A DNA stretch of 64,000 nucleotides from Patescibacteria group bacterium (GCA_028717685.1 JAQUNI010000001.1:207451-271450), one strand, 5' to 3'. Counted from the stretch's first letter, positions 29,277 to 50,362 are shown. Numbers and translations: made by a program. Notes: generated by a model not told the origin, from the sequence alone.

Positions 29277-29452
29277 GTTATTTATTTTGTCATTGCGAGG
29301 AGGGCTTATAGTCAGATCCCTCGCTTCCGCTCGGGACAGGCTCCGTAATCTCATCGAGCTATATTTATACAGATCTAGGAGATTGCTTCGGGCTCCGCCT
29401 AGGGCGGATCCCTCGCAATGACGGTATATTTCGTAATTCAAGGTAGGCTACG
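29277..29452. mobile_element. MITE-like GC-rich element with ~40 nt terminal inverted repeat (ACCTTGAATTACGAAAT...TGTCATTGCGAGGAGGG), copy A
   Basis: Right end ccctcgcaatgacggtatatttcgtaattcaaggtagg; internal ggagattgcttcg and gctcgatgagattacggagcctgtcccgagcggaagcgaggg shared with the copies at 34232 and 50212; no ORF. Confidence 0.6.
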
Positions 29453-29454
29453 AA

Positions 29455-29802
29455 TTACTCCTCATGAATTTCATCTGAAACGTTAAAAGCGGGAGAGTTG
29501 ATTAAAATTGCTTTAAAATTTCCACTCATTTTATAGGGAGTATTTGCTGGTACATATAAAACTGAATCTTTTTCAACTTTTATTTTTTTATCCTCAAAGT
29601 CAAAAATGGCGTTTCCTTCTAAAAAATAATAAATCCTATCACTGACAGTGTTCATTGTTTGAAGGGCGCTTCCGTGTAATTCAGACACGGCTAAACTTAC
29701 CTTATTAGTAATCTCTTTAGTAATGAAATTGGCTATCTTATAGGTTGCACCTTCACCCCGAATGACAGCCTCGGAACTTCTTTTAAAGATTGGTTTACCC
29801 AT
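29455..29802 (-). CDS. cupin-domain protein
   Basis: Cupin beta-barrel motif region ...YYFLEGNAIFDFEDKKIKVEKDSVLYVPANTPYKMSG... Confidence 0.55.
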   Translation of the reverse strand: MGKPIFKRSSEAVIRGEGATYKIANFITKEITNKVSLAVSELHGSALQTMNTVSDRIYYFLEGNAIFDFEDKKIKVEKDSVLYVPANTPYKMSGNFKAILINSPAFNVSDEIHEE

Positions 29803-29827
29803 ATCAATCCTTCATTTTTTTCATTAT

Positions 29828-30946
29828 TTAATAAGTGACGTTTTTTTCTGGCGGCACCACTTCCACCCAGGTTGTGCCGGGGTTAAATTTTATTTCTTTT
29901 CCTTTCTCATCATAAAACCGCGTCCGCTCTTCGCGGCTGCCCTTTTTCCAAATTCCCTGAATTACTTCGCCATCGCGGAAGACGAGAGCCTTATCCCCGC
30001 CAATCGTATGCATACCGAGCCGTCCTTTAATATCACCAGGATCTTTCAATTTAGCCACCATATATTGCACGACGACATTTTTCGCCGCAATCTCCGCGCC
30101 GGAATTTTTGTCTATATGTTTGAAGCCGCCATTGTAACGCAAATATTGATTGTTTTCGCGGTCATACTTCCAAACCACTTGATAGCTGGAAGTAGAAAAA
30201 GGAATCACAATGTCCCGAACCTCCGCTCCCCGGCCACCAAGCTCTTTCTCTTTTTTAAAGAGCCAAGGTTGAAAACTGCCCTTGTCCTCCCAACCTTTGG
30301 ATTGCACAGCTTCCCGCAAAGATTCTATCTTAGTAAAAAGATTATGAGGAGCGAGAGCGTCAGAGGCGCGCCAGAAAAAACTGCCATTATACATTTGATC
30401 TAATTCCTTAATCCCATATTCCCGCGCGAGTTTTAAGGCGTAAGGATCTCCCCCGCAATGGGCATAGACCGCATTGAGCTCGCTTGCCCAATCCAGATAA
30501 TAAACCCGCGCGCTCCGCACTGGTCCGATTTCAGGGATATCTCCATCCTCGGTAAAAAAGGCTAAAAAGCGAGTAATCCCGCCTTCGGCGAGCGCTTCAT
30601 AAACTAAATTGGCTTGAGAGAGACCGGATTGGGGTCTGACCGTTACCAAATTTTCAATCATCACCCCCAAAGGCAGCCTGTTTACTTCCTCTTCTTCAAC
30701 CGGCATTCCGTCAATGAGGCGAATCCCTTGGGGTAAAACGTAATTTTGATTTTGTTGCGCGTCCTCCTGACTTAACTTACTCTCTCCTTCTCCTCCTCGC
30801 GCCTTGGGCGCAAATCCCCGAATGTAAAAAGTACTCAAGAAAACAGCCACTACCAATAAAAAAACAGCCGCGCCAAAAATAATTTGATGCTTGCGGCTTT
30901 CTTTTAACAGAGTAAAAAATTGACGAAAAAAAATTTTGATATGCAT
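29828..30946 (-). CDS. DUF3048 (YerB-like) domain lipoprotein/secreted protein
   Basis: N-terminal TM; DUF3048 pattern PLGVMIENLVTVRPQSGLSQANLVYEALAEGGITRFLAFF. Confidence 0.65.
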   Translation of the reverse strand: MHIKIFFRQFFTLLKESRKHQIIFGAAVFLLVVAVFLSTFYIRGFAPKARGGEGESKLSQEDAQQNQNYVLPQGIRLIDGMPVEEEEVNRLPLGVMIENLVTVRPQSGLSQANLVYEALAEGGITRFLAFFTEDGDIPEIGPVRSARVYYLDWASELNAVYAHCGGDPYALKLAREYGIKELDQMYNGSFFWRASDALAPHNLFTKIESLREAVQSKGWEDKGSFQPWLFKKEKELGGRGAEVRDIVIPFSTSSYQVVWKYDRENNQYLRYNGGFKHIDKNSGAEIAAKNVVVQYMVAKLKDPGDIKGRLGMHTIGGDKALVFRDGEVIQGIWKKGSREERTRFYDEKGKEIKFNPGTTWVEVVPPEKNVTY

Positions 30947-30961
30947 ATAATGTTAAAAACA

Positions 30962-31471
30962 CTATTTTTCAAATCCTCCGGTTACCCAATCAAACTCACT
31001 TTGCCAATTACGCCCAGAACAACTCCAACCGGGGCTATTCGGATGAGGATTACCGCTTGTCTCAATATCTACTACTCCTAAAACATAAAAGGCTCCTCGG
31101 GAAGCATCGCAACTATAACTCCCAGCAGGATAACGGTAATAGCGATAATTTCCACAATCATAATTATTGATCGGATCTTTTACGTCTTGGCTTAAGAATC
31201 CTGCCGTTCTTAAAGAAGAAATAAAATCACCATCTCCGGGAGTATCCCAACCACCACAACCCTGATAGTCTGAACTAGGATATAACCCATATTGATCATA
31301 ATACAGTGCTAAGGCAGTTATCAATTGTTTCATTGACGCTAATCTTTGGGCGTCTCGCGCTTTTTTTCGGGCATTGTTCACGGACACAGTCACGATTGTT
31401 GCCAGAAGACCGATGATCGCAATCACAACCAAAAGTTCAATCAGAGTAAACCCCGTTAAATGCCGCTTCAC
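30962..31471 (-). CDS. prepilin-type N-terminal cleavage/methylation domain protein (type IV pilin-like), probable GTG start
   Basis: Class III signal (V/M)KRHLTG|[17 protein letters not shown]; the track ORF (to 31627) adds a 52-aa N-terminal extension with no pilin leader features; GTG at ~31471 gives a canonical 7-aa leader. Confidence 0.7.
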
Positions 31472-31682
31472 GGCAATTTTACCAAAAGCAAAATTATTTA
31501 ATGGGGTAAACCCGATAGAAATTTTAGAACTTACAGCCTGGTGCCTATTGTTACCCTTTATTTCTAATGAGGTAAATTCCCTTGAATGCATTAAAGGATC
31601 AACGCGCTTTTTAGTTTTGCAAGACATAATCTTCTTGAACTAAAGGATGTTATTCGCGAATAACATCCTGAAATTTGTATTT

Positions 31683-32396
31683 TTATTTTGCATCCTCTTG
31701 CTTTTCTCCTGCTTCTTCTGGGGCTCCAGGTTCGCCTCCTGCTTCGCTTTCAGCCCCTTCCTCTCCCTCTTTTTTAACGCCCTCAACCTCTTCCACTTTT
31801 TCCTCTACTTTTTCTTCTAATTCTTCTAATTCTTTTTCCGAACGTGGCGGCATCACGGAAACGACCACATCTTCAGGGTGAGCCAACACTTCCACATTTT
31901 TTGGAATATCCAAATCTTTGACATGAATAACGTCGTCAAATGTCTTTAAAGAAGATATAGAAACAAGAATAGAGTGAGGCAAGTCTTGAGGCAAACAGGA
32001 GACCTCAATCTCATCTAAACTTTTCACCAAAACGCCATCCAGATCCTTTACCGCCCGCGATACCCCCTTAAATTCCAAGGGCGCTTCCGCGGTAATCTTC
32101 TCGGTCATCTTGACCTCGTAAAAATCTATATGCAAATACTCCCCAGATACTGGGTCGCGTTGCACCTCTTTAACTAAAACCTTGCGCGGTTTTTTTTCTT
32201 TTTCAATGGTAAGATCGATCAAAGAGCTTTCCCCTGCTTCTTGAAAAACCTTTTGAAATTCCTTACGATCAGCAATCAAAAAAACATTTTTCACCTTATG
32301 CCCGTAGAGCACCGCCGGCACCATTGCTTCTCGCCGCAACTTTTTGGGTTTATTTTGAAGATCTCTTAATTTAACTTGTAAAACTAAATCAGCCAT
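31683..32396 (-). CDS. rplY: 50S ribosomal protein L25 (general stress protein Ctc form) with an acidic C-terminal tail
   Basis: L25/Ctc N-terminal domain ...REAMVPAVLYGHKVKNVFL... plus C-terminal beta-domain; E/K-rich tail. Confidence 0.8.
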   Translation of the reverse strand: MADLVLQVKLRDLQNKPKKLRREAMVPAVLYGHKVKNVFLIADRKEFQKVFQEAGESSLIDLTIEKEKKPRKVLVKEVQRDPVSGEYLHIDFYEVKMTEKITAEAPLEFKGVSRAVKDLDGVLVKSLDEIEVSCLPQDLPHSILVSISSLKTFDDVIHVKDLDIPKNVEVLAHPEDVVVSVMPPRSEKELEELEEKVEEKVEEVEGVKKEGEEGAESEAGGEPGAPEEAGEKQEDAK

Positions 32397-32403
32397 ATTT
32401 GTA

Positions 32404-32436
32404 AACCCTGTTAGAAATTTATTTCTAACAGGATGA
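32404..32436. repeat. 'CCTGTTAGAAAT' palindrome immediately upstream of the rplY start
   Basis: ccctgttagaaatttatttctaacagg. Confidence 0.6.
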
Positions 32437-32625
32437 ACTTTCTCAAATATCCCTTTAAAAGTCTGCCTTTTAAAGGGAATATAAGCTCAATTTAATAATA
32501 AGACGAAATTCCTCTGTAACTCAAGTTGCGTATTTTAGCGAGGGAAAATAAAATCCCTTTAAAATCTGCATTTGCGGTAGACAAACCTGCCCGCTAGCCT
32601 AGCGGCAGCTTAGACAGGCGGGTTC

Positions 32626-32952
32626 CTAGCGGGTTAAAGAAGCATTTCTAGTCTTCATCTTCTCATAGGTTTCAATGACCTCATCACAATTCACCATTAA
32701 ACTGTCCACAAACCTTTCCAAATCATCTCCCGTAAAATCAGTGACCATATAAAGGGAACTTGTACCCAAAGGATTATTTAAAATGATATTAATAATTGAA
32801 GAAAAGCAAGAAGGACAAAGGATATAAAAAAGATAACGCCCATTTGCTTCCCGAACCAATCTTAAATCCTCCCCACGGTAGACCGCCTGACAAATGGGGC
32901 AACGCGGTTTCACTCCCATTCTTTGGATTAACTCACGATCAGTTTGTGACAT
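32626..32952 (-). CDS. hypothetical protein with possible Cys4 zinc-ribbon (CPICQ...CPSC)
   Basis: ORF; GC-rich hairpin terminator downstream; no family recognised. Confidence 0.4.
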   Translation of the reverse strand: MSQTDRELIQRMGVKPRCPICQAVYRGEDLRLVREANGRYLFYILCPSCFSSIINIILNNPLGTSSLYMVTDFTGDDLERFVDSLMVNCDEVIETYEKMKTRNASLTR

Positions 32953-33007
32953 AAAGTATTCCCTCCTGAAATTTATTATAGCGTAAAATAATAGGTAGTC
33001 AATAAAA

Positions 33008-33105
33008 TCTTATAACTTAAAACCTATAGCTTGTAACTCAAGGAGGGAAATACAGATGCTAAGTCTTGAAATCTTGGGTTACACGTTATAAGTTACAAGT
33101 TACAT
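33008..33105. repeat. GTTACAA/GTTATAA heptad inverted-repeat element (core TGTAACTCAAGG...CTTGGGTTACA)
   Basis: cttataacttaaaacctatagcttgtaactcaaggagggaaatacagatgctaagtcttgaaatcttgggttacacgttataagttacaagttacat; related copies at 4300-4400, 40293-40370, 50898-50975. Confidence 0.65.
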
Positions 33106-33107
33106 AC

Positions 33108-34223
33108 TTATTTCTCCCTTCCAAACGCAACCTTGCGATAATTCATATAGATACTCTCTATAAGCCCCAAACTAATCAAAAAACTAATCAACGCTGAACC
33201 GCCATAGCTGATCAAAGGCAAAGCAATGCCTGCCACAGGGACTAAGCCAATATTCATCCCAATATTAATCATCACCTGGCTCAAAATCAAAATAGCTACC
33301 CCCGAAGCCAGAAAAACTCCGAATTTATCTAAAGAGAGGCGGCCTACTTTCAAAATTCTTAAGATCAAAAGCGCGAAGAGAACTAAAACAACGAAACCCC
33401 CAAAAAAACCAAATTCCTCGGCTGTAACCGCAAAAATAAAATCAGTATGCGGCTCGGGAAGAAACTTCAGCTGACTCTGGGAACCATGTCCCAACCCCTT
33501 TCCCCAAATTCCGCCCGAACCAACCGCAATCATGGATTGAATTAAATTATAATTTACTCCCAGCGGATCTGCATGGGGGTTAAAAAAAGCTATGATCCTT
33601 GACTTCTGATAAGGAACAAGCAGAAAAAGCCAAGCAACTAAACTAACCAGAATGAAAACCGATAAAGTGATCAAAATATGTTTTAGTTTTAGTCCCGCCA
33701 CAATAAGCATCCCGACCCACACCACAAGTAAAATGACGGCTGCCCCTAAGTCATGTTCCAGAATGATCAAGCTAACCGGAAGAGCAGTTAAAAACCCAGA
33801 AATTAATAAAACTTTGAGCCTACTAATATGTTCTTGATGGTCAGCAAAAAATGAAGCGAGCGTAATAATTAAAAAAATCTTTGCCATTTCTGATGGTTGA
33901 AATCGAAACGGTCCCAAAGAAAACCAACTCCTGCTCCCCCGAATCGTTGATCCCCAAAAAAGAACCGCAATTAAAAGAAGGAGCATTAAAATGTAAACAA
34001 TGAAACGATAATTCTTCAAAAAACGATAGTCAATAAGGCTTAAACCTATAAGCAAAAAAAAACCGATGCCGGCGGCGATTATTTGGACCTTAATCTTAGC
34101 CAAATTCGCTCCCCCTTCTTCCCATGTAGCGCTGTAAATTACCACCACTCCTATGGAGATTAATAAAAATAAAGGAATAAATAACCGCCAATCAAAATAT
34201 TTGAAAAATTGCAAGATTTTCAT
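33108..34223 (-). CDS. FtsW/RodA/SpoVE family peptidoglycan glycosyltransferase (SEDS)
   Basis: ~10 TM segments; SEDS motifs ...GSGGIWGKGLGHGSQSQLKFLPEPHTDFIFAVTAEEFGFFGG... Confidence 0.85.
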   Translation of the reverse strand: MKILQFFKYFDWRLFIPLFLLISIGVVVIYSATWEEGGANLAKIKVQIIAAGIGFFLLIGLSLIDYRFLKNYRFIVYILMLLLLIAVLFWGSTIRGSRSWFSLGPFRFQPSEMAKIFLIITLASFFADHQEHISRLKVLLISGFLTALPVSLIILEHDLGAAVILLVVWVGMLIVAGLKLKHILITLSVFILVSLVAWLFLLVPYQKSRIIAFFNPHADPLGVNYNLIQSMIAVGSGGIWGKGLGHGSQSQLKFLPEPHTDFIFAVTAEEFGFFGGFVVLVLFALLILRILKVGRLSLDKFGVFLASGVAILILSQVMINIGMNIGLVPVAGIALPLISYGGSALISFLISLGLIESIYMNYRKVAFGREK

Positions 34224-34231
34224 AAAAACCT

Positions 34232-34440
34232 TGAATTATGAAATGCGTCGTCTATTAGCGAGAGATCCGCCCTAGGCGGAGACCAAAGCCCGCCCGCCTC
34301 GCCTGAAGCGAAGCGATGGCGGGCAGGCAATCTCCTAAATCTGTATGAATAACAGCTCGATGAGATTACGGAGCCTGTCCCGAGCGGAAGCGAGGGATCT
34401 GACTATAAGCCCTCCTCACTAATAGGCAAAATGAATTCCG
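34232..34440. mobile_element. MITE-like GC-rich element, copy B (opposite orientation to copy A)
   Basis: Contains gctcgatgagattacggagcctgtcccgagcggaagcgagggatctgactataagccctcctc (revcomp of copy A's internal segment) and TIR-like ends aaccttgaattatgaaatg... / ...gaattccgcgattcaaggt. Confidence 0.55.
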
Positions 34441-34510
34441 CGATTCAAGGTAAAAAGCGGAAGGTTTAAAATCCCAAACCCAAAATCACGATTTTTAAAC
34501 TTTAAAGTAT

Positions 34511-35359
34511 TTAGATATCTCTGTATTCCCCGCTCCCCTGCGGGCTATCCTCTGGCAGAGGTTCCAAAAAATTGTCAGGATTATAGATATTAGTTTCTAT
34601 AAAAATATCCATCCGCTGCATCTCCCCCCGAAAATCTTGCAACCAACGCATCCTGAATTCTCTCTTGGTGTTGGAATAAAAATTGTTTAAGGTGGTGTAA
34701 TTTACAGCCAAAATCGCATCATTCTCCCCCCAACATACCACTTTCACTTCTACGTCTTTAAAATTATAATAACCCTGGTTTTGCACGATAGCAAAAAGCT
34801 CCAGCTGTCCTAGAGGATTTAGAGAAAGGCTCTTTGCATCCTCCAAAACGGAAAGTGAGGGGGACAAGAGATCACTACGGTTTAACCACCGCCCTACGGG
34901 TTTTAGTTCCAGTGTCGCTCTTTCTACTTTTATATCTTGAACTTCAATATCTGGACGAATAATATATTGGGTCTCTCCAGGTAAAATATAACTTGCTCCG
35001 GCAATCTCTTTAATAATCTCCCCTTGCGCGTTAAAAAGAAAAAATTTATAGTCCAAATTTTGCAAACCTAAAGCGGGATTAGGGTTTCTAATGACCGCAA
35101 CCAAATTATATTTATTACCCGAAGGCAAGGCTTCGCATCTAACAACCTCCAAATCCTCCGCAGCCACATTCCTCACGGGGAGAGTGACGAGAATGCCAGG
35201 TTCCGCCGGCCGGGGGTTCCCTAAATACTGCACTACCGAAGCAAAAATATAAATACCGATGACGGCATTCACGGCAATTAAAATCACAATTGCCATCCAA
35301 TCAATTAAACGACGATGTTTAATGTACCACAAAGCAAAACTCACGTTAAAATCTTTCAT
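34511..35359 (-). CDS. hypothetical membrane-anchored protein
   Basis: N-terminal TM (MAIVILIAVNAVIGIYIFASVV), beta-rich extracytoplasmic region. Confidence 0.45.
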   Translation of the reverse strand: MKDFNVSFALWYIKHRRLIDWMAIVILIAVNAVIGIYIFASVVQYLGNPRPAEPGILVTLPVRNVAAEDLEVVRCEALPSGNKYNLVAVIRNPNPALGLQNLDYKFFLFNAQGEIIKEIAGASYILPGETQYIIRPDIEVQDIKVERATLELKPVGRWLNRSDLLSPSLSVLEDAKSLSLNPLGQLELFAIVQNQGYYNFKDVEVKVVCWGENDAILAVNYTTLNNFYSNTKREFRMRWLQDFRGEMQRMDIFIETNIYNPDNFLEPLPEDSPQGSGEYRDI

Positions 35360-35489
35360 ATTTTTGTTTCTTATTTTGCGGAAAAGCGCATTGGATTATC
35401 AAGACCAAAACGCATCATTCCTGTCTTTTAATTTAACATAAAAAGCGATTTGTCGCAAATGGCTATATTTAGTATAATAAATCTTAGGA

Positions 35490-36155
35490 ATGGCGCAAAG
35501 ACTGCGTCATAAAATCTCAATGTCTCAAAAAGTTTACAACTGGGATGCAGTTTCTGATTATCTGCGGGAAAACACGCAGGCAGGACTTCAAATAGCCGTG
35601 CTAGAGGCGGATAAAATTTTAATCGCCGTAATTCGAGATTTAAACTATCCTGGCAAAAATGGCGAGGAAAGGTTACTCTTAGCCCAAAAATTATTTTCTG
35701 ATTTTGACCGTGTCAAAAAAGCCCATCGGTTCGCGCAAAAAATCAGAAGAGAAATCGGTTTTTCTCTCACGCCAAAAACTACGGAAGAAATTCTCGCTGT
35801 TTACTACCAAGCTCTTCTAGACATCAAAGAACATTCTAATCCTCGTTTCAAACTTTTCGAAAAAATTGTTTTCTATTTTCAGAAAAGGATTTTGAAGACC
35901 AAAAAATTATTAAAATGGATCGGCATAGGCTTACCTCTTTTTCTTCTTGCCACCCTTTTCCTCGATAAAACCAAAATTGGTCATAAGATAGTGAAAACAG
36001 TGCTCGCGATTAATGATTTTATTTTCTCTTGGCTGATCATTTTAATCTTTCTTGCTGGTGGTATTATCGCCTTGACCTTCGGAAGCATCTGGTATTTTAA
36101 AACGCGCCACAAGATAGATATAGATATGGATATTAACATCAATAAACCCCATTAG
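35490..36155 (+). CDS. hypothetical membrane protein
   Basis: Two C-terminal TM helices; no family recognised. Confidence 0.4.
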   Translation: MAQRLRHKISMSQKVYNWDAVSDYLRENTQAGLQIAVLEADKILIAVIRDLNYPGKNGEERLLLAQKLFSDFDRVKKAHRFAQKIRREIGFSLTPKTTEEILAVYYQALLDIKEHSNPRFKLFEKIVFYFQKRILKTKKLLKWIGIGLPLFLLATLFLDKTKIGHKIVKTVLAINDFIFSWLIILIFLAGGIIALTFGSIWYFKTRHKIDIDMDININKPH

Positions 36156-36232
36156 ACCCTGTTAGAAATTTATTTCAAATGGAGCTAACGGTTTTCGCTG
36201 ACCCCGTTAGATAAGTAAACATCTAACGGGGT
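36153..36232. repeat. 'CCCCGTTAGA' palindromes (two copies) immediately upstream of dnaE
   Basis: ccctgttagaaatttatttc...gagctaacgg and ccccgttagataagtaaacatctaacgggg. Confidence 0.6.
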
Positions 36233-36254
36233 AAATAAAATAACACGCAGTTTT

Positions 36255-39200: not shown

Positions 39201-39761
39201 CTTGTGACTTTGGGAGGTATTATCACAAAAATCAAAAAAATTATCACTCGCAAGGGCGATCCTATGCTTTTTGTGACTTTAGAGGATTTATCTGACAAAA
39301 TAGAAATTCTCGTTTTCCCCCGCCTTCTAGCGCAAAACCCCACTCTTTGGCAGGAAAATAAAATTGTCCTTCTCTCGGGTAAACTCTCGGATAAAGACGG
39401 TGAACTAAAACTTCTCGCCGACAGCGCCTCTCACGTTACTAAGGAGATATTGACAGAATTTCAACAAAAAGTCAGAGAGCAAAAAATAGATCCAGATTCT
39501 GTGTTTGTGGCGAAACAAAAATGTCCAAAGGTCCAAATCAAACTGCCGCGAGCGGCGGATCGCGACCTGTTGATTAAGTTGAAACAATTCTTGGCCTCCC
39601 ACCCTGGATCCTGCCCGGTTTATCTTTCTATTCCTAATGGCAACCCCTCTTCCCCAGAACAAATCAAAACCGAGTTTAAGGTGGATCTGCAACAGAATGT
39701 AACCCAAGAATTAAAAAACTTTATGGGGGGAGAAAATGTGTCGGTAATCAGTAATCGGTAA
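36255..39761 (+). CDS. dnaE: DNA polymerase III alpha subunit
   Basis: PHP domain MFTHLHTHSHYSLLDG; polymerase core and OB-fold; 1168 aa. Confidence 0.95.
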   Translation: MFTHLHTHSHYSLLDGLIKIDDLVQMASKNGMKALALTDHGVMYGVIEFYEKALSVGLKPLIGVEAYLANNGMTDKRPNIDNKQYHLVLIAKNQQGYQNLIKLTTHAHLEGFYYKPRIDRELLKKHKGGLIALSACLKGEIPNAIMNGDFKKAEESALFYQNTFGAGNFYLELQHHPNIPEQAKVNAELVKISKKHNIPLVATNDIHYLEKTDAEAQEILLCLQSKKTLLDQNRPLSMIGDDFSFTPPKLMEEYFRDIPEALENTAKVAKMCNLNIALGQTKLPHYQVPSGTNPISYLRKLCLSGLQKRYQTNYQKAPRTIIERLNYEFSVIEKTGFATYFLIVQDFVNWAKNHNIIVGPGRGSAAGSLVSYLLNITDIDPIAHELLFERFLNPERISMPDIDLDFADTRRDEVIDYVRQKYGQDHVAQIITFGTMAARAAIRDVGRVFSYPYSFCDQIAKMIPMFFSLERALSTVPELKTAYKQDEKVKKLIDTAKKLEGVARHASTHACGILITKDPIDEVAPRQYASASDQTIVSQYEMHAIESTGLLKMDFLGLKNLTILENTLKIIEKIRNENVELKKIPMDDLRTFKLLAQGKTTGVFQLESSGMKRYLKELQPTTFEDIIAMVSLYRPGPMEWIPDYIAGKKGKKKITYLHPKLKPILEKTYGVAVYQEQVLQIARDLAGFSLGEADILRKAVGKKIPKLLAEQKEKFVQGCKQNGLSQDLAEKIFSFIEPFAGYGFNRAHAACYALIGYQTAYLKTHYPAEFIAALLTSDQSNTDRIAIEVDECSSLGIKVLPPDINESFANFTVVQQKDKKEVIRFGLSAIKNVGANIVAEIIKERKQNGPYQNLDDFIKRVQDKDLNKKSLESLSKCGALDKFGERNQILANTDKILHYAREYRRVNAIGQRDLFGNLSTTQANFSRLRLGEVATASKEEKLTWEKDLLGLYISHHPLDDYREYLAYKTTPIHALNPLQKNDLVTLGGIITKIKKIITRKGDPMLFVTLEDLSDKIEILVFPRLLAQNPTLWQENKIVLLSGKLSDKDGELKLLADSASHVTKEILTEFQQKVREQKIDPDSVFVAKQKCPKVQIKLPRAADRDLLIKLKQFLASHPGSCPVYLSIPNGNPSSPEQIKTEFKVDLQQNVTQELKNFMGGENVSVISNR

Positions 39762-39862
39762 TCAGTAATTAGTAAATAGTAATTGGCAAATCTGCATTAA
39801 AATAATTACCAGTTACCAATTACCAATCACTAATTACCAATTTACTATTATTCTTGCTAAAA
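39762..39862. repeat. heptad-repeat palindromic element (GTAATCA / TTACCAA arms) downstream of dnaE
   Basis: ggtaatcagtaatcggtaatcagtaattagtaaatagtaattgg ... ccagttaccaattaccaatcactaattaccaatttactatta. Confidence 0.65.
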
Positions 39863-41543: not shown

Positions 41544-41753
41544 TAATTTTTAATTTTCAATTTCTAATTTTCATTAAATTTCCATTTACTTAATTTTTAA
41601 ACAAATAAAAATCAAATTCTCTTAACCCGCTTACCATAGAATCCGAAAGTTTAAAAATTATTTCATTAAAAATTTAATAAAAATTGCCACACCTAACGGG
41701 TGGTCACCCATTAGGGTGAAAAATTATAAATTAGAAATTTTATTTACATAAAT

Positions 41754-43526: not shown

Positions 43527-43732
43527 CACCTTCAACAACTAAAGAAATGATACAAATTACAATTCAAAAGATTGAAGAATTTATCAAGATACAAGAAGAA
43601 ATAATTGAGTTCAGGCGCAAGGAAAGAAAATATTCGGAGAGTAAGCACAAGTGGTTAAAAATGGACAAAATCTGACAAATCAAGCACAATAAAATCGAGC
43701 TTCCCTAAAAACTCGATTTTATTATTACCAAA

Positions 43733-45115
43733 ATGCAAACCTATTTTTTAAAAACTTTCGGCTGCCAAATGAACCAGTCGGACGCGGAGCGGATTGCCGC
43801 GGTTTTAGAAAAAGCAGGGCTCACTTTATCTTCTGAAAAAGAAGCAGATATTTTAATCGCCAATGTTTGCGCGGTGCGGCAGCGAGCAATGGATCGGGTT
43901 TACGCCCTGGTGAATAAATGGCAAAAACGGAAAGATGCAAAAATTATCCTCACAGGCTGCATCTTAGAAAAAGATAAAAAATTGTTCTGCGATAAGGCGC
44001 ATGGTATTGTTCCCATAGGCGCGATTGCGAAACTGCCACAAATCATTAAAGATGGAGACGCGAAACATTGCATCTCTATAAAATCATATTTGGGAATAAA
44101 ACCAAAACATCATAATTCCTTTTCGGCTTATGTGCCGATTATGACCGGCTGCAATAATTTCTGCGCTTACTGCGTTGTCCCCTACACGCGAGGCAGAGAA
44201 ATTTCAAGACCGGCGGATGAAATTATAAAGGAGGTGCGAAGTCTTATAAAGATTGGATATAAAGAAATTATCCTGCTTGGACAGAATGTGAATTCATACC
44301 AGAGTAAACTCAAATGTCAAAACTCAAATGCCAAAACTACAACTCAAAACTCAAAACTAATAAATTTCCCAAAGTTATTGCAAATGATAGATAGCATAAC
44401 GGGTAATTTTTGGATTGGATTTATTACCTCGCATCCTAAAGATATGTCAGATAAGTTAATTAACACAATTGCGCGATGTAAAAAGGTTTGCAAATATATC
44501 CATTTACCAATCCAATCAGGAGATGATGGGATTTTGAAAAGGATGAACCGAAAATATACGGTTGCGCATTATTTGGGTTTAATAAAGAAAATCCGCTCCA
44601 GAATCCCGAAGGTGGCGATTTCCACGGATGTCATTGTCGGCTTTCCTGGCGAAACCAAAAAGCAATTTGAAAATACGGTCAAAGTTTTTAAAAAAGTAAA
44701 ATTTGATATGGCTTATATTGCCCAATATTCCCCGCGTCCTGGCACAGCCGCGGCGAAATTCAAAGATGACGTCAAAAGCCAAGAAAAAAAACGGAGATTT
44801 CAAATCTTAAATCAATTGCTCAAAAAGATTGCGCTGGAAAATAATCAAAAATTAGTGGGGAAAGAAATGGAAATTTTAGTGGAGCAATATGAGAAAGGAT
44901 ATTGCGTAGGAAAAACGCGCGCTTTTAAAAATGTGAAATTTAGAAATAATGGGAAGAAAAATTTGGAAGGTGAATTTGTGAAGATAAAAATCGCAAAAGC
45001 AACGGCGTGGGGATTAGAAGGGAATATTTCTCCCCTGACAAGGGGAGATAAGAGAGGGGTTAATAAAAAACCGCAAAATCTTTTTTTCAAGACTTTGCGG
45101 CAAAGAACGCAATGA
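43733..45115 (+). CDS. miaB: tRNA methylthiotransferase MiaB-like (radical SAM, MTTase family)
   Basis: N-terminal MTTase domain MQTYFLKTFGCQMNQSD; radical SAM CNNFCAYCVVP; TRAM domain; in-frame low-complexity insertion QSKLKCQNSNAKTTTQNSKL. Confidence 0.85.
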   Translation: MQTYFLKTFGCQMNQSDAERIAAVLEKAGLTLSSEKEADILIANVCAVRQRAMDRVYALVNKWQKRKDAKIILTGCILEKDKKLFCDKAHGIVPIGAIAKLPQIIKDGDAKHCISIKSYLGIKPKHHNSFSAYVPIMTGCNNFCAYCVVPYTRGREISRPADEIIKEVRSLIKIGYKEIILLGQNVNSYQSKLKCQNSNAKTTTQNSKLINFPKLLQMIDSITGNFWIGFITSHPKDMSDKLINTIARCKKVCKYIHLPIQSGDDGILKRMNRKYTVAHYLGLIKKIRSRIPKVAISTDVIVGFPGETKKQFENTVKVFKKVKFDMAYIAQYSPRPGTAAAKFKDDVKSQEKKRRFQILNQLLKKIALENNQKLVGKEMEILVEQYEKGYCVGKTRAFKNVKFRNNGKKNLEGEFVKIKIAKATAWGLEGNISPLTRGDKRGVNKKPQNLFFKTLRQRTQ

Positions 45116-45455
45116 GCTTTCTGCGAACAGTGAAAACTATATACGGTAGAAGGGTTGAAAACCTATGCCAAGAGAATTGAATTCTATATGGCATAAGAAT
45201 TAAAAACTCATATGCTCTATTGAGTAATATTACCTGACCAGAAGAATGGATAATCTTTTTCTCCCCCGAAGAGAGAATAGTCATTTTTAAAGATCCTTCA
45301 TGTTCACTGTGAACAAACAGAACAACACCAATTTGTCCGGTTTCAATAATACGAACTAATCTTCCGGGCTTGATCTCGTGCTGATTTTTATCCAGAGCAA
45401 CCCCATACAAATCATTATAATCTTTTTGACTCCCGGCATTAAACACTCTTCTCAT
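45087..45455 (-). CDS. hypothetical protein (122 aa)
   Basis: ORF overlapping the miaB 3' end by ~29 nt; no family recognised. Confidence 0.35.
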   Translation of the reverse strand: MRRVFNAGSQKDYNDLYGVALDKNQHEIKPGRLVRIIETGQIGVVLFVHSEHEGSLKMTILSSGEKKIIHSSGQVILLNRAYEFLILMPYRIQFSWHRFSTLLPYIVFTVRRKLIAFFAAKS

Positions 45456-45473
45456 ACCTCAAGCTCCTTTCTA

Positions 45474-46022
45474 TTAAATCCAGCCTTTATACCAATAATA
45501 GCCAACGGTTGGGATTTCACGCAACCACCAGTAATAGTTGTTGCGTGTCCACCATTGGGCAGAAAAGGGATTGAAAGGGATAGTCTTTAAACTACCGAAG
45601 ACCGCAGTTTCTATCCCGAGTTTTTCTAAACACTTTGCGCAACGCCAGACGTGGTCAGGGTGAGCAACTACAATTGCCTTAGTCCAATCTTGCTTTTTCA
45701 TAAATTCTGCGGCCTGCCGAGCAAATTCATAAGTGTCTAGGTATTTTCCCGGGACACTGTGTTCTTTGATATTTAAAACTATATTACCAGACATACTATA
45801 GAAATCCAGACACTCGACAATTTCAACTTGGCAAATTATCGGTATTTGCGTATATCCGCCCATGCCATAAGCAATGCAATAAATTTTTTCAGCGATTTTT
45901 TGATTACTAATTCCTGGACCAGGTTTAATGTATTCCTCTTGCGGATCATTATATCCAAAAGCAAAAGCGATAATACAATGATATTTGATAGCTCCGCCAT
46001 TTATCTTAAACAATCCACTCAC
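45474..46022 (-). CDS. DUF218 (YdcF/ElyC-like) domain protein
   Basis: AIVVAHPDHVWRCAKCLEKLGIE resembles the DUF218 'H.pR' motif; pattern recognition only. Confidence 0.4.
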   Translation of the reverse strand: MSGLFKINGGAIKYHCIIAFAFGYNDPQEEYIKPGPGISNQKIAEKIYCIAYGMGGYTQIPIICQVEIVECLDFYSMSGNIVLNIKEHSVPGKYLDTYEFARQAAEFMKKQDWTKAIVVAHPDHVWRCAKCLEKLGIETAVFGSLKTIPFNPFSAQWWTRNNYYWWLREIPTVGYYWYKGWI

Positions 46023-46025
46023 CTC

Positions 46026-46349
46026 CTAATCTTTTCTCCCATTCTCTCTTTCTGGCGCGAGTGTAACCTCTATTTCGAGGTTAATTTTGGAACCCACAAC
46101 GTGATAGCCTGGATGATTTTTGAGAAGTTCCCCTATTTTGTTAGACACTTCCTGATCAACATCAAACATATTTTTACCATCCTTAATAGTAGTTTTCCAG
46201 GTGTTCGGTGGAATTTGACCACTCCTTACTGGCGCGACATCCATTGCCTCCCAATAAGTAGAACTCATCTCTTTTTCTCTCTCCTTGCACCCAAAAAGTA
46301 AAAGGCAAAGAAATAACCCGCAAAGCGCCAATACTGTTAACTTTTTCAT
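46026..46349 (-). CDS. lipoprotein (hypothetical)
   Basis: Lipobox LLFGC after MKKLTVLALCGLFLC; the track ORF extends to 46388, but Met14 is the likelier start. Confidence 0.5.
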   Translation of the reverse strand: MKKLTVLALCGLFLCLLLFGCKEREKEMSSTYWEAMDVAPVRSGQIPPNTWKTTIKDGKNMFDVDQEVSNKIGELLKNHPGYHVVGSKINLEIEVTLAPERENGRKD

Positions 46350-46396
46350 CTCATTTCTCCTTATAATGCGTAGCTTTAAGATCTTCAAATATATTT

Positions 46397-46933
46397 CTAA
46401 TCAATAACGCCGCCCGCGCAGATCCGATGGAATAATGCTTCTTTTTCTTCTTCATCTTTATGGATAAAAAATATCCATTCGTGATAAAGAAAACTCTCAA
46501 AAGACGCGTTATTCGGGTTTGAAAAACGAATAACAAAGACAAGATCATCCGAAACAAAACTTTGCAATTCTGCGGCGCCATTCCAAAGATCAGATATGAA
46601 CCTAGCGCGCCCTTTTCTGACCGAATCTAGAATCATTTCTTTGGTGTAATCACTAGTCGGCGAGGTAATGCCGTAATAACTGCGTCCCCAAACCGGAACA
46701 TCATAGTCTTGAAATATCATTTCTTGACCAGAAAATTTTTCTCTGCCAAAATACCTATCAATATAACGTAACTTCGGCTTCGGAGTATTTATGTTTAATC
46801 TGGAATATTCATAAACTATTTCTCGAGGCAAGCTAATAGAAAATTCAACCTTAAAAATATCACCTTCCTCACCCGCCAAATAGGTTTTACTTTCAGCTTC
46901 TATTAAAAACTGTGTAATCTGTTCAATATTCAT
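46397..46933 (-). CDS. hypothetical protein
   Basis: Met16 (MNIEQ...) start has SD AAGGAGGA 8 nt upstream; no family recognised. Confidence 0.45.
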   Translation of the reverse strand: MNIEQITQFLIEAESKTYLAGEEGDIFKVEFSISLPREIVYEYSRLNINTPKPKLRYIDRYFGREKFSGQEMIFQDYDVPVWGRSYYGITSPTSDYTKEMILDSVRKGRARFISDLWNGAAELQSFVSDDLVFVIRFSNPNNASFESFLYHEWIFFIHKDEEEKEALFHRICAGGVID

Positions 46934-47009
46934 TTTTTTCCTCCTTATACCTATCAAAAAGCAAAAACTGATTATCATTCTCGGCGCAACTGCCTCGGGT
47001 AAAACTGAG

Positions 47010-48056
47010 ATGTCTTTAGAATTGGCTAAAAAAATTCCAAACAGCTACATCATTTCCGCGGATTCGCGCCAAATCTATAAAGGCTTAGATATCGGCACGG
47101 GAAAATTGACCGGCGGAAGACACAAAATTTTAAAAGGACAAAATATTCTTCACTTCCACAATATCCCGCATTATATGATTGATATTATGGAGCCGAACCG
47201 AGAATACACAGTAGCACAATATCAGAAGAGTGTCAAAAAGGTTATCCGCGAAAACAAAGGCAGAATCCCATTTTTGGTCGGCGGCACAGGGCTTTATATT
47301 AACGCGATTGTGGACGGCTTGTCTATCCCCCCTTCGGCACCAGATTACAAACTGCGCGGAAAACTTGAGAAAGAAACGGACGGAAATTTATTTCAGAAAT
47401 TAAAAAAATTAGATCCAATTTGCGCCCAAAAAATTGATTCAAAAAATAAACGGCGCTTAATCCGCGCGCTGGAAGTGTGTTTAAAGACAGGGAAGCCATT
47501 TTCTAGTTTACAGAAAAAGAAAAAACCCAATTACGATGTTCTGCAAATTGGGATTTCTGTGCCGCGAGAAGAATTATATGAGCGCATTGATAAGCGCGTA
47601 GACAGAATGATAAAACAAGGACTAATTGAAGAAGCAAAAAAAATCTTAAAAAAATATGAGCTTTTGAATTCACTCCCCCTGCCCGAGAAGAGGAGACGTG
47701 AGGGGGTGGGAGTTTATGTAAGTTTAGACCTCTCCAACCTCCCCCCGCACTCGCGGCAAGCAGGCTTAGTAAGGAAAATTTGGAGTGGTACTGAAAAAGA
47801 TTTAAAAAGTCGCAATCTCCCTCCCCCCCTACCCCCCCTCGGGCAGGGGGGGATAATCCACGATTCCATCGGCTACAAAGAAATAATATCGTATCTGGAT
47901 GGTGAAATCAGTTTAGATGAAATGATAGTCTTGATCAAAAAAAACACGCGACATTACGCCCGCCGCCAAATGACTTGGTTTAAGAGGGATAAAAGGATTC
48001 AGTGGATCAAAAATAAAAAAGAGGCGGAAAGATTGGTTAAAAAATTTTTGAGATAA
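47010..48056 (+). CDS. miaA: tRNA dimethylallyltransferase; P-loop lies upstream of the first ATG, and a ~55-aa GC-rich insertion is present
   Basis: SADSRQIYKGLDIGTGK and C-terminal IGYKE...RHYARRQMTWFKRD; the in-frame upstream sequence encodes LIIILGATASGKT (P-loop) with no ATG/GTG/TTG, so the true start is probably CTG/ATT near 46968. Confidence 0.8.
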   Translation: MSLELAKKIPNSYIISADSRQIYKGLDIGTGKLTGGRHKILKGQNILHFHNIPHYMIDIMEPNREYTVAQYQKSVKKVIRENKGRIPFLVGGTGLYINAIVDGLSIPPSAPDYKLRGKLEKETDGNLFQKLKKLDPICAQKIDSKNKRRLIRALEVCLKTGKPFSSLQKKKKPNYDVLQIGISVPREELYERIDKRVDRMIKQGLIEEAKKILKKYELLNSLPLPEKRRREGVGVYVSLDLSNLPPHSRQAGLVRKIWSGTEKDLKSRNLPPPLPPLGQGGIIHDSIGYKEIISYLDGEISLDEMIVLIKKNTRHYARRQMTWFKRDKRIQWIKNKKEAERLVKKFLR

Positions 48057-48061
48057 AAAGA

Positions 48062-48083
48062 GGGGTATATTCATATATACCCC
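48062..48083. terminator. hairpin terminator between miaA and the convergent gene
   Basis: GGGGTATAT-TCA-TATATACCCC. Confidence 0.5.
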
Positions 48084-48090
48084 ATAAAAA

Positions 48091-48363
48091 TCATTTAAAA
48101 GCCTCTTCTATTATTTGGATAGTGGATTCCGCATCATGCAGTTCCCTATCCTCCAATTTTTCCCTGGACCATTTTGCCACGTCATTCAGCAAAAATCTTT
48201 TAGTTATGGCGGAACCTTTCCTAGCCTTTGCCACCAAATGCAAAAGGTTTAATTCGTTATCAGCCTCAATGGATCCGGCATGGGCCTCCTTTATGAGTTT
48301 GCGGATCTCATCTCTGCTCCTTTTTCCATTATTTTTAGGACTGATTTCTTCACTATCAGCCAT
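48091..48363 (-). CDS. hypothetical protein (~90 aa)
   Basis: ORF; likely start MADSEEIS; no family recognised. Confidence 0.35.
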   Translation of the reverse strand: MADSEEISPKNNGKRSRDEIRKLIKEAHAGSIEADNELNLLHLVAKARKGSAITKRFLLNDVAKWSREKLEDRELHDAESTIQIIEEAFK

Positions 48364-48413
48364 CAAAAATCCTTTCTGCCCGCCTCCTTGGCAAGATCGG
48401 TGTAAAAGAGCCA

Positions 48414-48444
48414 TATAAAAAAACGACCCACTTTACGAGTGGGC
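48414..48444 (-). terminator. intrinsic terminator downstream of gatB (minus strand)
   Basis: Revcomp reads CCCACTCGTAAAGTGGG followed by TTTTTT. Confidence 0.6.
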
Positions 48445-48648
48445 TTTCGAACGAGAAAAATAATAAATTCTTTTGAAAATTGGGGAAAATTTTTGTAATT
48501 TCCTTTGCCACATAAAAGAATTTATTATCTCTACACACTGTTCTTATTTTAACCTTTTCTATAAAACTGTCAAGCGCCGCCATTCTGGCTTAGATAAAAG
48601 AAAAATAAAAAAACTGGGGATAACCTTAATAAAGTTGTCCACAGTTTT

Positions 48649-50109
48649 TTATTTCAATTTTTCCCTTATCAAATCCTGCACTATCTGCGGATTTGCGCGA
48701 CCACCTGTTTTGCGCATCACCTGCCCCACGAGAAACATAAGGGTTTTTGCATTGCCAGCCCGCAAATCCTCCACGGGTTTAGGGTTCTCTTTGACTACTT
48801 CTTCAATAATCGCATTCAACTGCTCTACATCACTCACCTGCGCTAAATTTTTCTCGGCAATCACTTGCGAAGGATCCGCGCTCTTCTCAAACATTTCTTT
48901 TAAAACAATCTGCGCCGCGGAGGAATTTATCTCCCCGCGAGACACGATATTCATAAATTCGGCGAAATTTTCGGGCGTGATTTTTAAATGGCTAATACTG
49001 ACTTTGTTCACCCTTAATAATTTCTGTAATTCCGTTACCACCCAGTTCGCCGCGAGTTTAGATATTTTTTGACCTTGATCTTCTGCCGCCGCTTCGGAAA
49101 CCACTTGCTCATAATAATCGCCTAGGGCTTTATTATTGACTAAGGCGCTAATATCTTCAGGTCCCAAGCCATATTCCGCCTTCAGCCTTTTTCTTCTATG
49201 GACCGGCAGTTCTGGCATTTGAGCCCGCATTGCTTCTACAATTTTTTTGAGCCTTAAAGGCGGCAAGTCTGGCTCTCCAAAATAACGATAGTCATGCGCT
49301 TCTTCTTTCGTCCTCTGCTCCCGCGTAATCCCCTTGCGATCATCCCAGCCTCGGGTAATTTTACCTTTTTCTTTCTTTAGCGCCGCGAACTCATCCGTCT
49401 GTCTATCCACTTCATAAGCTAAAGCTTTTTCCACCATCTTGAAGGAATTTAGATTTTTAATTTCCACGATGGGCGTTTTAGCATTCCCAGATTTAATATT
49501 AACATTAGCATCGCACCGCAGTTCTCCTTTTTCCATATCCGCATTGGAAACCCCCAAGTAACGCATAATGAGGCGCAGCTCCCGCAAAAAAGCTCCGGCT
49601 TCTTCAGGGGAAGTGATATCGGGTTCCGTCACAATTTCCATCAAAGGCGTTCCTCCGCGATTATAATCCACTAAGCTGTAACTTTTGTCTTCGGCGTGCA
49701 AATTTTTTGCCGCGTCCTCTTCAAGGTGCACCCTCCTGATGCTAATCTTATGACCATTAATCTCTAAATAACCATTGACTGCGATAGGCATATCGTATTG
49801 GGAAATCTGATACCCCTTAGGCAAATCCGGATAAAAATAATTCTTGCGGTCAAATTTGCTTTCTTTCGGTATTGCACAATTTAAAGCGATGCCCGTTAAG
49901 ACAGTCCATTCCACAGCCTTTTTATTAATCACGGGTAAAACCCCCGGATGCCCCAAACAAATTGGGCAAATGTTTTCATTCGCTTGTTTGTTTGTAATAT
50001 CATTATCGCACGCGCAAAACATCTTGCTTCGGGTTTTGAGCTGAACGTGAATTTCTAAACCGATAATGGTTTTAAATGATGGCATTGTTTCATTGTTGAA
50101 TTGTTTCAT
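48649..50109 (-). CDS. gatB: aspartyl/glutamyl-tRNA(Asn/Gln) amidotransferase subunit B
   Basis: GatB N-terminal signature IIGLEIHVQLKTRSKMFCACDND; the track ORF extends to 50160; start likely Met18 (50109) or Met26 (50085). Confidence 0.9.
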   Translation of the reverse strand: MKQFNNETMPSFKTIIGLEIHVQLKTRSKMFCACDNDITNKQANENICPICLGHPGVLPVINKKAVEWTVLTGIALNCAIPKESKFDRKNYFYPDLPKGYQISQYDMPIAVNGYLEINGHKISIRRVHLEEDAAKNLHAEDKSYSLVDYNRGGTPLMEIVTEPDITSPEEAGAFLRELRLIMRYLGVSNADMEKGELRCDANVNIKSGNAKTPIVEIKNLNSFKMVEKALAYEVDRQTDEFAALKKEKGKITRGWDDRKGITREQRTKEEAHDYRYFGEPDLPPLRLKKIVEAMRAQMPELPVHRRKRLKAEYGLGPEDISALVNNKALGDYYEQVVSEAAAEDQGQKISKLAANWVVTELQKLLRVNKVSISHLKITPENFAEFMNIVSRGEINSSAAQIVLKEMFEKSADPSQVIAEKNLAQVSDVEQLNAIIEEVVKENPKPVEDLRAGNAKTLMFLVGQVMRKTGGRANPQIVQDLIREKLK

Positions 50110-50211
50110 TGTTAATTTTAACAGAAAATGAGCTGAAAGGCAAAATAAAAAACTGGCCAAGTTGACCAGCTTAAGATGGAGATATTATTTTTATCCCCTC
50201 AATTATTGATA

Positions 50212-50362
50212 AACCTTGAATTACGAAATTCATTTTGTCGTTGCGAGGAGGGCCTTAAAGCCCGACGAAGCAATCTCATTAAGTGATATTTATGCCTAAT
50301 TTAGGAGATTGCTTCGGTCGGCATCAAATGCCTCCCTCGCAATGACAATACATTTCGTAATT
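50212..50362. mobile_element. MITE-like GC-rich element, copy C, with a clean ~40-nt TIR
   Basis: Left aaccttgaattacgaaattcattttgtcgttgcgaggagggcc; right cctccctcgcaatgacaatacatttcgtaattcaaggta; internal palindrome cccgacgaagcaatctc...ggagattgcttcggtcgg. Confidence 0.65.

Follow-up and report, generated by a model that had tools for sequence, protein, structure and literature searches.

Short GC-rich elements in a Patescibacteria genome are probably MITEs bounded by the ends of an IS982-type insertion sequence

What are the short, GC-rich and palindromic segments that lie between the genes of a 64,000-nucleotide stretch of Patescibacteria DNA (GCA_028717685.1 JAQUNI010000001.1:207451-271450; hereafter the window)? 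A first-pass annotation, made from the sequence alone, had described three of them as copies of a family of MITEs, miniature transposable elements framed by inverted repeats, and had placed the autonomous partner of this family outside the window. We conclude, with a probability that we put at roughly 0.9, that the three elements are MITEs carrying the 17-bp ends (ACCTTGAATTACGAAAT) of an approximately 1.0-kb insertion sequence (IS) of the IS982 family that is common in Patescibacteria. The MITE interpretation is borne out by ends identical to those of the IS, target-site duplications (TSDs) as long as those of the IS, dispersed and non-orthologous copies, and the absence of coding capacity.

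The 17-mer ACCTTGAATTACGAAAT matches the window at five positions when up to 3 mismatches are allowed, against 0.31 expected, and five or more matches were obtained in none of 100 shuffled sequences. Four of the matches form two inverted pairs, which bound copies 2 and 3, and the fifth is unpaired (Table 1). The three sites are those given by the first-pass annotation, but its boundaries (29277-29452, 34232-34440 and 50212-50362) had to be moved to those in the Table. The internal boxes TGTCRTTGCGAGG and GGAGATTGCTTCG are indeed found in the window elements. Of the terminal inverted repeat (TIR) that all three copies were said to have in common, the outer ends stood for copies 2 and 3, whereas copy 1 has a single outer repeat, on its right. 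The reported TIR of about 40 nt is likewise present, but it is a composite of the 17-nt IS-type end, a spacer of 6-7 nt and an inner head box, TGTC(A/G)TTGCGAGG, that resembles the head of repetitive extragenic palindromic (REP) sequences. As had been stated, none of the three elements contains an open reading frame (ORF), all three lie in intergenic spacers, and their GC content (42-53%) exceeds that of the remaining non-coding DNA (31.7%; 41% for the whole window). The suggestion that this GC content betrays horizontal acquisition has to be dropped. The GC stems from the REP-like hairpin modules, the ends themselves are rich in AT, and the family is indigenous to many lineages of the candidate phyla radiation (CPR); high GC is therefore no argument for a foreign origin.

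The copies differ in their state of preservation. Copy 3 is a near-perfect palindrome that folds into a single long hairpin (-81.3 kcal/mol, z = -11.7), and it is probably the youngest of the three. The terminal repeats of copy 2 have 1 and 3 mismatches to the 17-mer, and AAAA is found on both of its flanks (34224-34227 and 34452-34455). Its folding is far stronger than that of shuffled sequences, and that of copy 1 less so. In copy 1 the right terminal repeat is intact and the left one is not recognisable, for which reason its left boundary is approximate. An alignment of the three copies revealed a mosaic: 64 nt are 100% identical between copies 1 and 2, in opposite orientation (29297-29360 in copy 1), a 23-nt block is present in these two copies and not in copy 3, the 39-nt hairpin nested in copy 2 is missing from copies 1 and 3, and the apical hairpins vary among all three.

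Table 1. Positions of the elements, their ends and modules, and other repeats in the window. Positions are counted from the first nucleotide of the window.
Feature	Position	Strand or orientation	Description
MITE copy 1	29270..29444		about 175 bp; spacer of the convergent prmC and cupin genes
MITE copy 2	34228..34451	inverted relative to copies 1 and 3	224 bp; spacer between a 282-aa ORF and rodA
MITE copy 3	50213..50368	none	156 bp; folA/gatB spacer; both 17-bp TIRs perfect
Match to ACCTTGAATTACGAAAT	29428-29444	minus	unpaired; copy 1
Match to ACCTTGAATTACGAAAT	34228-34244	plus	pairs with 34435-34451; copy 2
Match to ACCTTGAATTACGAAAT	34435-34451	minus	pairs with 34228-34244; copy 2
Match to ACCTTGAATTACGAAAT	50213-50229	plus	pairs with 50352-50368; copy 3
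Match to ACCTTGAATTACGAAAT	50352-50368	minus	pairs with 50213-50229; copy 3
Putative 4-bp TSD ATAA of copy 3	left 50209..50212, right 50369-50372
Nested 39-nt GC-rich hairpin in copy 2	34290..34328 (+/- 2 nt)		also in the members on L037 and L181
Inner unit, copy 3	50236..50278	+	TGTCGTTGCGAG, 18-nt variable hairpin, CGAAGCAATCTCA
Inverted partner unit, copy 3	50304..50347	-	TGTCATTGCGAG, 19-nt variable hairpin, CGAAGCAATCTCC
Inner unit, copy 1	29378..29423	-	CGTCATTGCGAG, hairpin GGATCCGCCCTAGGCGGAGCC, CGAAGCAATCTCC
Stand-alone inverted dimer of TGTC-headed REP-like units	63207..63328		TGTCATTCC...GGAATCCAGG and partner TGTCGTTCCC...GGGATCCAGG
Stand-alone small GC hairpin	60496..60535		akin to the 39-nt insert of copy 2; common motif GCCCGCCATCGCT
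Perfect GC hairpin	12374..12412		GCTCCATAATCCCC-loop-GGGGATTATGGAGC; loop and inner stem (CCCTCGCTTCGCTCGGG) similar to a module of copies 1 and 2
Tandem arrays (examples)	1517-1564, 3467-3585, 8697-8754, 22380-22497, 23034-23075, 29102-29131, 39744-39842, 54551-54579

The same ends recur well beyond the window. Among the matches listed in a scan of other genomes, inverted pairs 90-376 bp apart were found on many Patescibacteria contigs. These comprise at least 53 short non-coding elements (90-376 bp) with pairs of the 17-mer at up to 3 mismatches, and the lineages that carry pairs include Staskawicz-, Falkow-, Doudna-, Nealson-, Kerfeld-, Moranii- and Paceibacteria as well as other Patescibacteria assemblies. 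The interiors of these elements fall into at least 24 sequence clusters. It is therefore the ends that define the family, and not the interior. In 596 Gb, chance alone should produce about 140 matches to a 17-mer with one two-fold position, and the single matches in unrelated phyla are explained in this way. Perfect flanking direct repeats of at least 4 bp (mode 5 bp) were present, among the matches listed, in 21 of the 46 pairs (46%) with up to 2 mismatches. When left and right flanks from different elements were paired as a control, such repeats appeared in 3.7%, so that the enrichment is 12-fold. In about 16 of the 21 TSD-bearing pairs listed, the duplication stands in the context T-TSD-A, which suggests a target preference. 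Both of these searches, for further copies of the TIR and for TSDs, had been proposed by the first-pass annotation as checks of its view, and both were positive at the level of the family.

Assemblies were also seen to end within the elements. The short-read contigs L001 and L182 (contigs and loci of other assemblies are numbered here with L) terminate inside copy 3 and copy 2, respectively, as is expected of repeats, which break short-read assemblies. Genuine TIR pairs around REP-like cores were furthermore observed in metagenome-assembled genomes (MAGs) labelled as Gammaproteobacteria (L004, L078, L095 and L109) and as Hydrogenedentota (L045), the latter with three ends that are nested or in tandem. 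These carriers with labels from outside the CPR could be due to mis-binning or to transfer across phyla. In a viral collection scanned with the end, 9 single matches and one pair were obtained, and an IS982 transposase was not found. The pair (0 and 1 mismatch) lies on the viral contig L190 (7360-8502; IMGVR_UViG_3300032203_000026) and surrounds 1143 bp with a TnpB-like gene (Pfam Cas12f1-like TNB, 6e-18), without a TSD and between large phage-like ORFs.

The view that the autonomous partner lies outside the window was also borne out: no homologue of the IS982 transposase was found within the 64 kb, and full-length IS with the same ends exist elsewhere. One of them (L074 406-1408) measures 1003 bp, has perfect ends and the TSD ATTT, and contains a single ORF, the product of which scores 133.4 bits with the NCBIfam IS982 model (cut-off 130) and matches Pfam DDE_Tnp_1_3 at 1e-30. 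On L003, the 17-bp end is followed by a transposase homologue of 53% identity that is cut off by the contig edge. Metagenome contigs were scanned with the transposase protein, and not the DNA end, as the seed; this yielded 51 loci, of which nearly every complete one is bounded by the same 17-mer (0-3 mismatches). The search for a full-length element with the same TIR thus delivered 23 full-length IS of 989-1030 bp, each with one ORF for a 267-aa DDE transposase and 17-bp ends, and many with TSDs of 4-5 bp (for example CGGGC, TAAAT, TAATA, ACTTA and ATAAT). Homologues of the transposase are numerous (3175 at E<1e-20, typically 267 aa), and most of them lie on contigs of about 1 kb, as one would predict of an IS present in many copies; NCBI lists some under the name 'IS982 family transposase [Candidatus Kuenenbacteria]'. 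Members of the IS982 family in ISfinder are about 1 kb long, have ends starting with AC and generate TSDs of 3-9 bp. The IS982 model NF033520 was the best match for all nine proteins tested with it, at 117-133 bits compared to 30-48 bits for IS5 and IS4 models, and four of the nine reached the curated cut-off of 130 bits. For the eight of these that were examined in addition to the L074 protein, the IS982 model was ahead by about 80 bits. One short element (L146 710-983) is simply a derivative of the IS with an internal deletion.

The interior of the window elements is of a different nature. Across loci, a recurrent unit is made up of [C/T]GTC-ATTGCGAG, then a hairpin whose sequence is arbitrary, and finally CG(A/C)(A/G)GCAATCTC (for example TGTCATTGCGAG-hairpin-CGAAGCAATCTC). 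The hairpin of the unit differs from copy to copy and yet always pairs, as in GGGC/GCCC, GGCAT/ATGCC, GTCCTG/CAGGAC, AGCCGAT/ATCGGCT and TCCGCC/GGCGGA. The MITE core consists of two such units in inverted orientation, and it is this inverted dimer, together with added small GC hairpins, that makes the whole element a long GC-rich palindrome. All units in the window are headed CGTC or TGTC, and their stem of 5 bp (ATTGC/GCAAT) leads into an internal loop and an additional hairpin of 14-21 nt. In other MITEs with the same ends (L020, L075, L087 and L118), the canonical unit of the CGTC-tagged REPs (PMC3733652), with an 8-bp stem and a 4-nt loop, TGTCATTCCCGC-N4-GCGGGAAT-CCA, takes the same position. 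The SRM pattern HGTCWYN(0-2)YYVSBRHN(0-5)WNVSBRGN(0-2)RNCYNB gave no match on either strand of the window, and a GIY-YIG gene (cd10448, Ssn) was not found in the window or on the contig L181 of a close relative, either with a motif regular expression or by phmmer with a CPR GIY-YIG protein from L108. Because stem and loop do not fit, the SRM pattern fails and a GIY-YIG gene was not found, we refer to the window units as REP-like, judging from their sequence, and do not file them as members of the CGTC-REP or SRM classes. The dimers occur in two forms, either naked (63207-63328 and a spacer on L181) or between 17-bp ends with TSDs (the window copies and L020, L075, L087 and L118). The naked dimer of L181, at about 17090-17290 in the prmC/prfA spacer, is made of MITE-core units, includes the 39-nt hairpin and has no IS ends. 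It is missing from the orthologous spacer of the window, and the core can therefore exist and vary alone.

A comparison of orthologous sites informs about the age of the copies. The L181 contig and the window have a nucleotide identity of about 93% and are syntenic over 21 kb. On L181, copy 2 occupies the orthologous site between the same flanks, but there the ends have decayed differently and one apical hairpin has been swapped for the copy-3 type. Since it is shared at this site, copy 2 is old and immobile and predates the split from the 93% relative. That copies 1 and 2 nevertheless have their 64 identical nucleotides points to gene conversion between copies. A further member, from Candidatus Doudnabacteria (L037 5008-5227), matches copy 2 at 84% identity across 227 nt, nested hairpin included; it lies between unrelated hypothetical genes and has its own TSD, TCTAT. 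More distant relatives have no elements at the corresponding positions. In L178-L180 (63-71% identity of RodA), the spacers upstream of rodA measure 50-186 nt and contain different heptamer repeats in place of an element, and no end was found on these contigs; in the window the same spacer is 287 nt long, of which 224 nt are copy 2. In L178, 3 nt separate DUF3048 from prmC, at the place that is taken by the cupin gene and copy 1 in the window. In L174 (a 74% relative), two other ORFs lie between folA and gatB and the element is absent, and in L177 (GatB 94% identical) there is no element in the 171 nt upstream of gatB, a spacer that cannot be aligned.

Several points weigh against the interpretation of the elements as IS982-related MITEs. 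The exact scan with the 17-mer, which covered one genome per species, gave at least 120 loci, and its counts are neither totals nor an unbiased sample. The putative TSDs in the window are short, consist of A and T only (ATAA for copy 3, AAAA for copy 2) and are individually weak, and copy 1 has none. A base-exact empty site was not found for any window copy, the spacers of the relatives being too diverged. It should also be noted that the transposases score near the IS982 cut-off (117-133 against 130 bits), and they are therefore best described as a divergent branch of the IS982 family. When the interiors of the window subfamily were compared with the 23 full-length IS by BLAST, no similarity was detected, which leaves a simple origin by internal deletion unsupported here. 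Lastly, the search for a cognate transposase reached across this window and the short flanks of the relatives.

Two other interpretations would dispense with a mobile short form, and both appear very improbable. The elements could be conserved structured regulatory RNAs of the flanking genes, such as terminators, attenuators or small RNAs. Strong folds, the retention of copy 2 at the same site in the 93% relative and the position of element ends, often 4-11 nt upstream of start codons, would be in line with this view. However, RNAs conserved at orthologous positions, a scenario that the first-pass annotation had itself raised against its proposal, are not what was found, as the orthologous spacers of relatives with 63-74% protein identity are without elements. 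Moreover, the flanking genes are unrelated and the orientation of the elements to them is mixed, and neither IS-identical ends nor TSDs are accounted for. There is also no enrichment of terminators or promoters: in a scan of 29000-35500, their counts equalled the shuffled expectation and nothing was tied to the elements. An Rfam 15 covariance search returned no family for any element at the gathering threshold or at E<=1, and detected only four tRNAs. Alternatively, each copy could be a full-length IS982 that has decayed in place. The single end of copy 1, the solo end at the corresponding locus of L181 and the deletion derivative on L146 are of the kind that such decay would leave behind. Yet the three copies and the L037 member have a common non-IS interior that is dissimilar to all 23 full-length IS. 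This excludes independent deletions, and the short form itself must have been copied.

A more serious, though still improbable, competitor is an element of the REP type, or of the type of REP doublets known as REPINs. In this case the inner hairpin dimers would spread via single-stranded DNA, served by a transposase resembling the REP-associated tyrosine transposases (RAYTs) or by an Ssn-type GIY-YIG nuclease, and the outer repeats would be incidental. The units do begin with CGTC or TGTC, their stem starts with AT, their hairpin varies with compensatory changes, their tail is conserved and they are arranged as inverted dimers; they fit the description of CGTC-tagged REPs (PMC3733652) and resemble the NTS and SRM motifs (PMC11893778). 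In addition, dimers without IS982 ends exist at 63207-63328 and at L181 ~17090-17290. On the other hand, the outer 17-mer coincides exactly with a DDE IS end, the TSDs lie outside this end and not at the inner units, and the interiors differ entirely in many elements that carry the same ends. A search of the window for a GIY-YIG gene was negative, the units do not conform to the published SRM pattern, and their heads are not GTAG, the tag of RAYT-associated REPs. A REP-type origin would thus account for the core, but not for the whole element. The two layers may be combined in the idea that IS982-type ends serve as a vehicle for CGTC/TGTC-tagged REP-like hairpin dimers in Patescibacteria, which we put forward tentatively and consider rather doubtful at present.

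If the elements are IS982-related MITEs, as we favour, their movement could proceed as follows. The 267-aa DDE transposase of a full-length copy, either in the genome now or formerly in the lineage, would bind both ends and excise or copy the element, which would then be inserted at a staggered cut of 4-5 bp in AT-rich intergenic DNA, presumably often at a T-N5-A target. What is moved would be an inverted dimer of REP-like units and not deleted IS sequence. The copies differ in age, with perfect ends in copy 3, decayed ends in the older copy 2 and a single end in copy 1, and they appear to swap modules by gene conversion. Judged by its ends, copy 3 may still be mobilisable. Both the present-day activity of the copies and the catalysis by the transposase are steps that we infer.

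Not all GC-rich segments of the window belong to this family. The 'related TGTCATTCCCG elements' of the first-pass annotation did not prove to be MITEs of the same kind. The termini TGTCATT(C/G)C ascribed to these further segments exist only at 63207-63328, a dimer without IS982-type ends that has the apical hairpin TCCGCC-N3-GGCGGA in common with copies 1 and 2. The segments at 12335-12420, 20826-20866 and 60496-60535 have neither such termini nor an outer TIR but have small GC-hairpin sub-modules in common with the MITE interiors. The hairpins at 12374-12412 and 20826-20866 are sisters of each other (GCTCCATA[A/G]TC...), and CGTCATTCCC at 20945 is the stem of a simple hairpin that is followed by a T-run. 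For 20150-20290, no similarity to the other elements and no Rfam match were detectable; this GC-richer structured stretch (-36 kcal/mol) is located upstream of a small membrane-protein ORF (20433-20684).

Further hairpins and units were noticed, most of them outside the window. Another type of GC hairpin, CTCCCCCTT-N-AAGGGGGAG, is present at 12264-12284 in the window and upstream of gatB at L177 49-69, which are different loci. In Staskawiczbacteria (L108 4300-4705), an 83-aa GIY-YIG gene, whose closest solved relatives are UPF0213 proteins, is followed by a long GC-rich palindrome, and the start of the latter, GCCCGCCCGCATCGCTACGCT, is similar both to the hairpin at 60496-60535 and to the nested one of 39 nt. 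At L174 11424-11471, and also in L175 and L176, the ORF called as gatB shares its final ~35 nt with a TGTCATTGCGAG...CGAAGCAATCTCG unit; this intragenic or ORF-extending REP-like unit is reminiscent of the Rickettsia RPEs. Units with GTCATTGCGAG were seen in other outer contexts at L092 100-340, L093 1700-1960 and 4050-4160, and L105 40-150. These contexts include a diverged end, ATCTTAAATTATAAAAT, a recurrent GGTAAC(C/T)(C/G)CTCAC(A)CCT box and one unit just outside an IS982-type end, and REP-like units may thus combine with several types of flank.

With respect to neighbouring genes, the rodA ATG (34221-34223) is 4 nt from the CAAGGT end of copy 2, and AAGG may be a candidate Shine-Dalgarno sequence. 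In a raw count from other genomes, an ORF of at least 70 aa begins no more than 15 nt from 11 of 94 element ends, in several cases at 4-8 nt. The DUF3048-prmC interval is wholly different between L181 (14937-16133) and the window (29259-29822), despite the genome identity of about 93%. In L181, a solo IS982-type end comes right after the DUF3048 stop and is followed by two small coiled-coil-like ORFs, where the window has the cupin gene and copy 1. This interval looks like a rearrangement hot spot beside a transposon end.

As for the host, all homologues of GatB and RodA belong to Patescibacteria or Parcubacteria. The window RodA is 100% identical to MDD5626631.1, and a member of its 90% cluster is annotated as Candidatus Doudnabacteria. 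From these sequences, the window appears to come from a Doudnabacteria-like MAG. Two other features of the window were recorded. The ORF called as gatB (48649-50160; 503 aa) has a TTG start and exceeds its homologues (479-485 aa, at 95% query coverage) by about 24 codons. Its true start is probably the ATG near 50088, which would make the spacer to copy 3 about 124 nt long. Secondly, about 35 intergenic tandem arrays with a period of 7 nt (or 14 nt) occupy nearly every spacer of the window. The unit sequence varies (e.g. AATTTTC, GAATCAG, AATTACC and CTTTGCA), inverted arrays often flank a gene or tRNA cluster, and in L178 and L179 arrays of different units are found at the same spacers.

MITEs derived from IS982 are already known, but they have apparently not yet been described in Patescibacteria, as no paper on MITEs of this phylum was found in the literature searched. 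Three copies were found here in 64 kb of a very small CPR genome (~0.7 Mb), and many CPR classes have a 17-bp transposon end in common with little change, alongside thousands of cognate IS982-type transposase genes. In practical terms, annotators can mask a defined family, whose members disrupt short-read assemblies and which explains GC-rich 'islands' and spurious small ORFs in the intergenic DNA of CPR bacteria. The elements can also be used as markers for comparisons at the strain level. Of greater interest is that CGTC-type REP dimers are repeatedly found packaged between the ends of a DDE transposon; this composite, with REP-like dimers inside IS ends, offers a clue to how REPs of the CGTC type might move. 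If packaging indeed spreads the dimers, it would provide a concrete dissemination route for CGTC REPs, and two layers of hairpin DNA, one served by a DDE transposase and the other by an Ssn- or RAYT-like single-stranded DNA enzyme, would coexist in genomes of ~0.7 Mb. The architecture of a variable stem and a conserved head would then mark a protein recognition site.

In their layout, the window elements are similar to the Correia (NEMIS) and NIME sequences of Neisseria, palindromic intergenic MITEs of about 100-160 bp near gene starts and ends that form mosaic arrays with dRS3-type repeats; the two have no sequence similarity and differ in their ends and host. For the Correia elements we know of no identified parent IS, whereas one has been identified for the window elements. 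With REPINs and their RAYTs (PMC3116915; bioRxiv 10.1101/2021.07.10.451892), the window elements have in common the palindromic REP doublets, hairpins of about 100 nt, the intergenic location, long persistence and sequence exchange within the genome. REPINs are, however, GTAG-headed, have no combination of TIRs and TSDs, and depend on a tyrosine (HUH) transposase instead of being bounded by the end of a DDE IS with TSDs. The inner units are closest to the CGTC-tagged REPs, which often have a TGTC head, an AT-started stem and a CCA tail, occur mostly as inverted dimers and have no dedicated transposase; the Neisseria repeat dRS3 has been equated with CGTC-1, and the Rickettsia elements RPE-4 and RPE-6 have also been placed in this class (PMC3733652). 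The Neisseria repeat has been described as the NTS, which is cut as single-stranded DNA by the GIY-YIG nuclease SsnA and has degenerate SRM relatives in many phyla (PMC11893778), and the same repeat has been treated as a RAYT-associated REPIN (bioRxiv 10.1101/2021.07.10.451892). The window units have the unpaired CGTC/TGTC head, the AT-started stem, the short tail and the inverted-dimer layout of this class, but the known stem of 8-9 bp with a loop of 4-5 nt is replaced by a 5-bp stem, an internal loop and an extra hairpin, and the units are enclosed by transposon ends.

With regard to these ends, the partner IS resembles the IS982 family (NF033520) in its length of about 1 kb, its single DDE ORF, its TIRs starting with AC and its short TSDs, whereas the window elements carry no transposase and the CPR transposases score at or just below the cut-off. 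The closest parallel to the MITEs themselves is MITECca01, together with ISCca4, in the Cardinium endosymbiont of Oedothorax gibbosus (PMC9769881). It is likewise a short non-coding element (~240 bp, compared to 156-224 bp here) in a small repeat-bearing genome, with inverted repeats very close to the ends of an IS982-family IS, and it is presumed to be mobilised in trans. The two differ in host phylum (Bacteroidota versus Patescibacteria), in the sequence of the ends and in the interior, which is REP-like here and not derived from the IS. Unlike in Cardinium, the same ends are found here on at least 24 types of interior across many CPR lineages.

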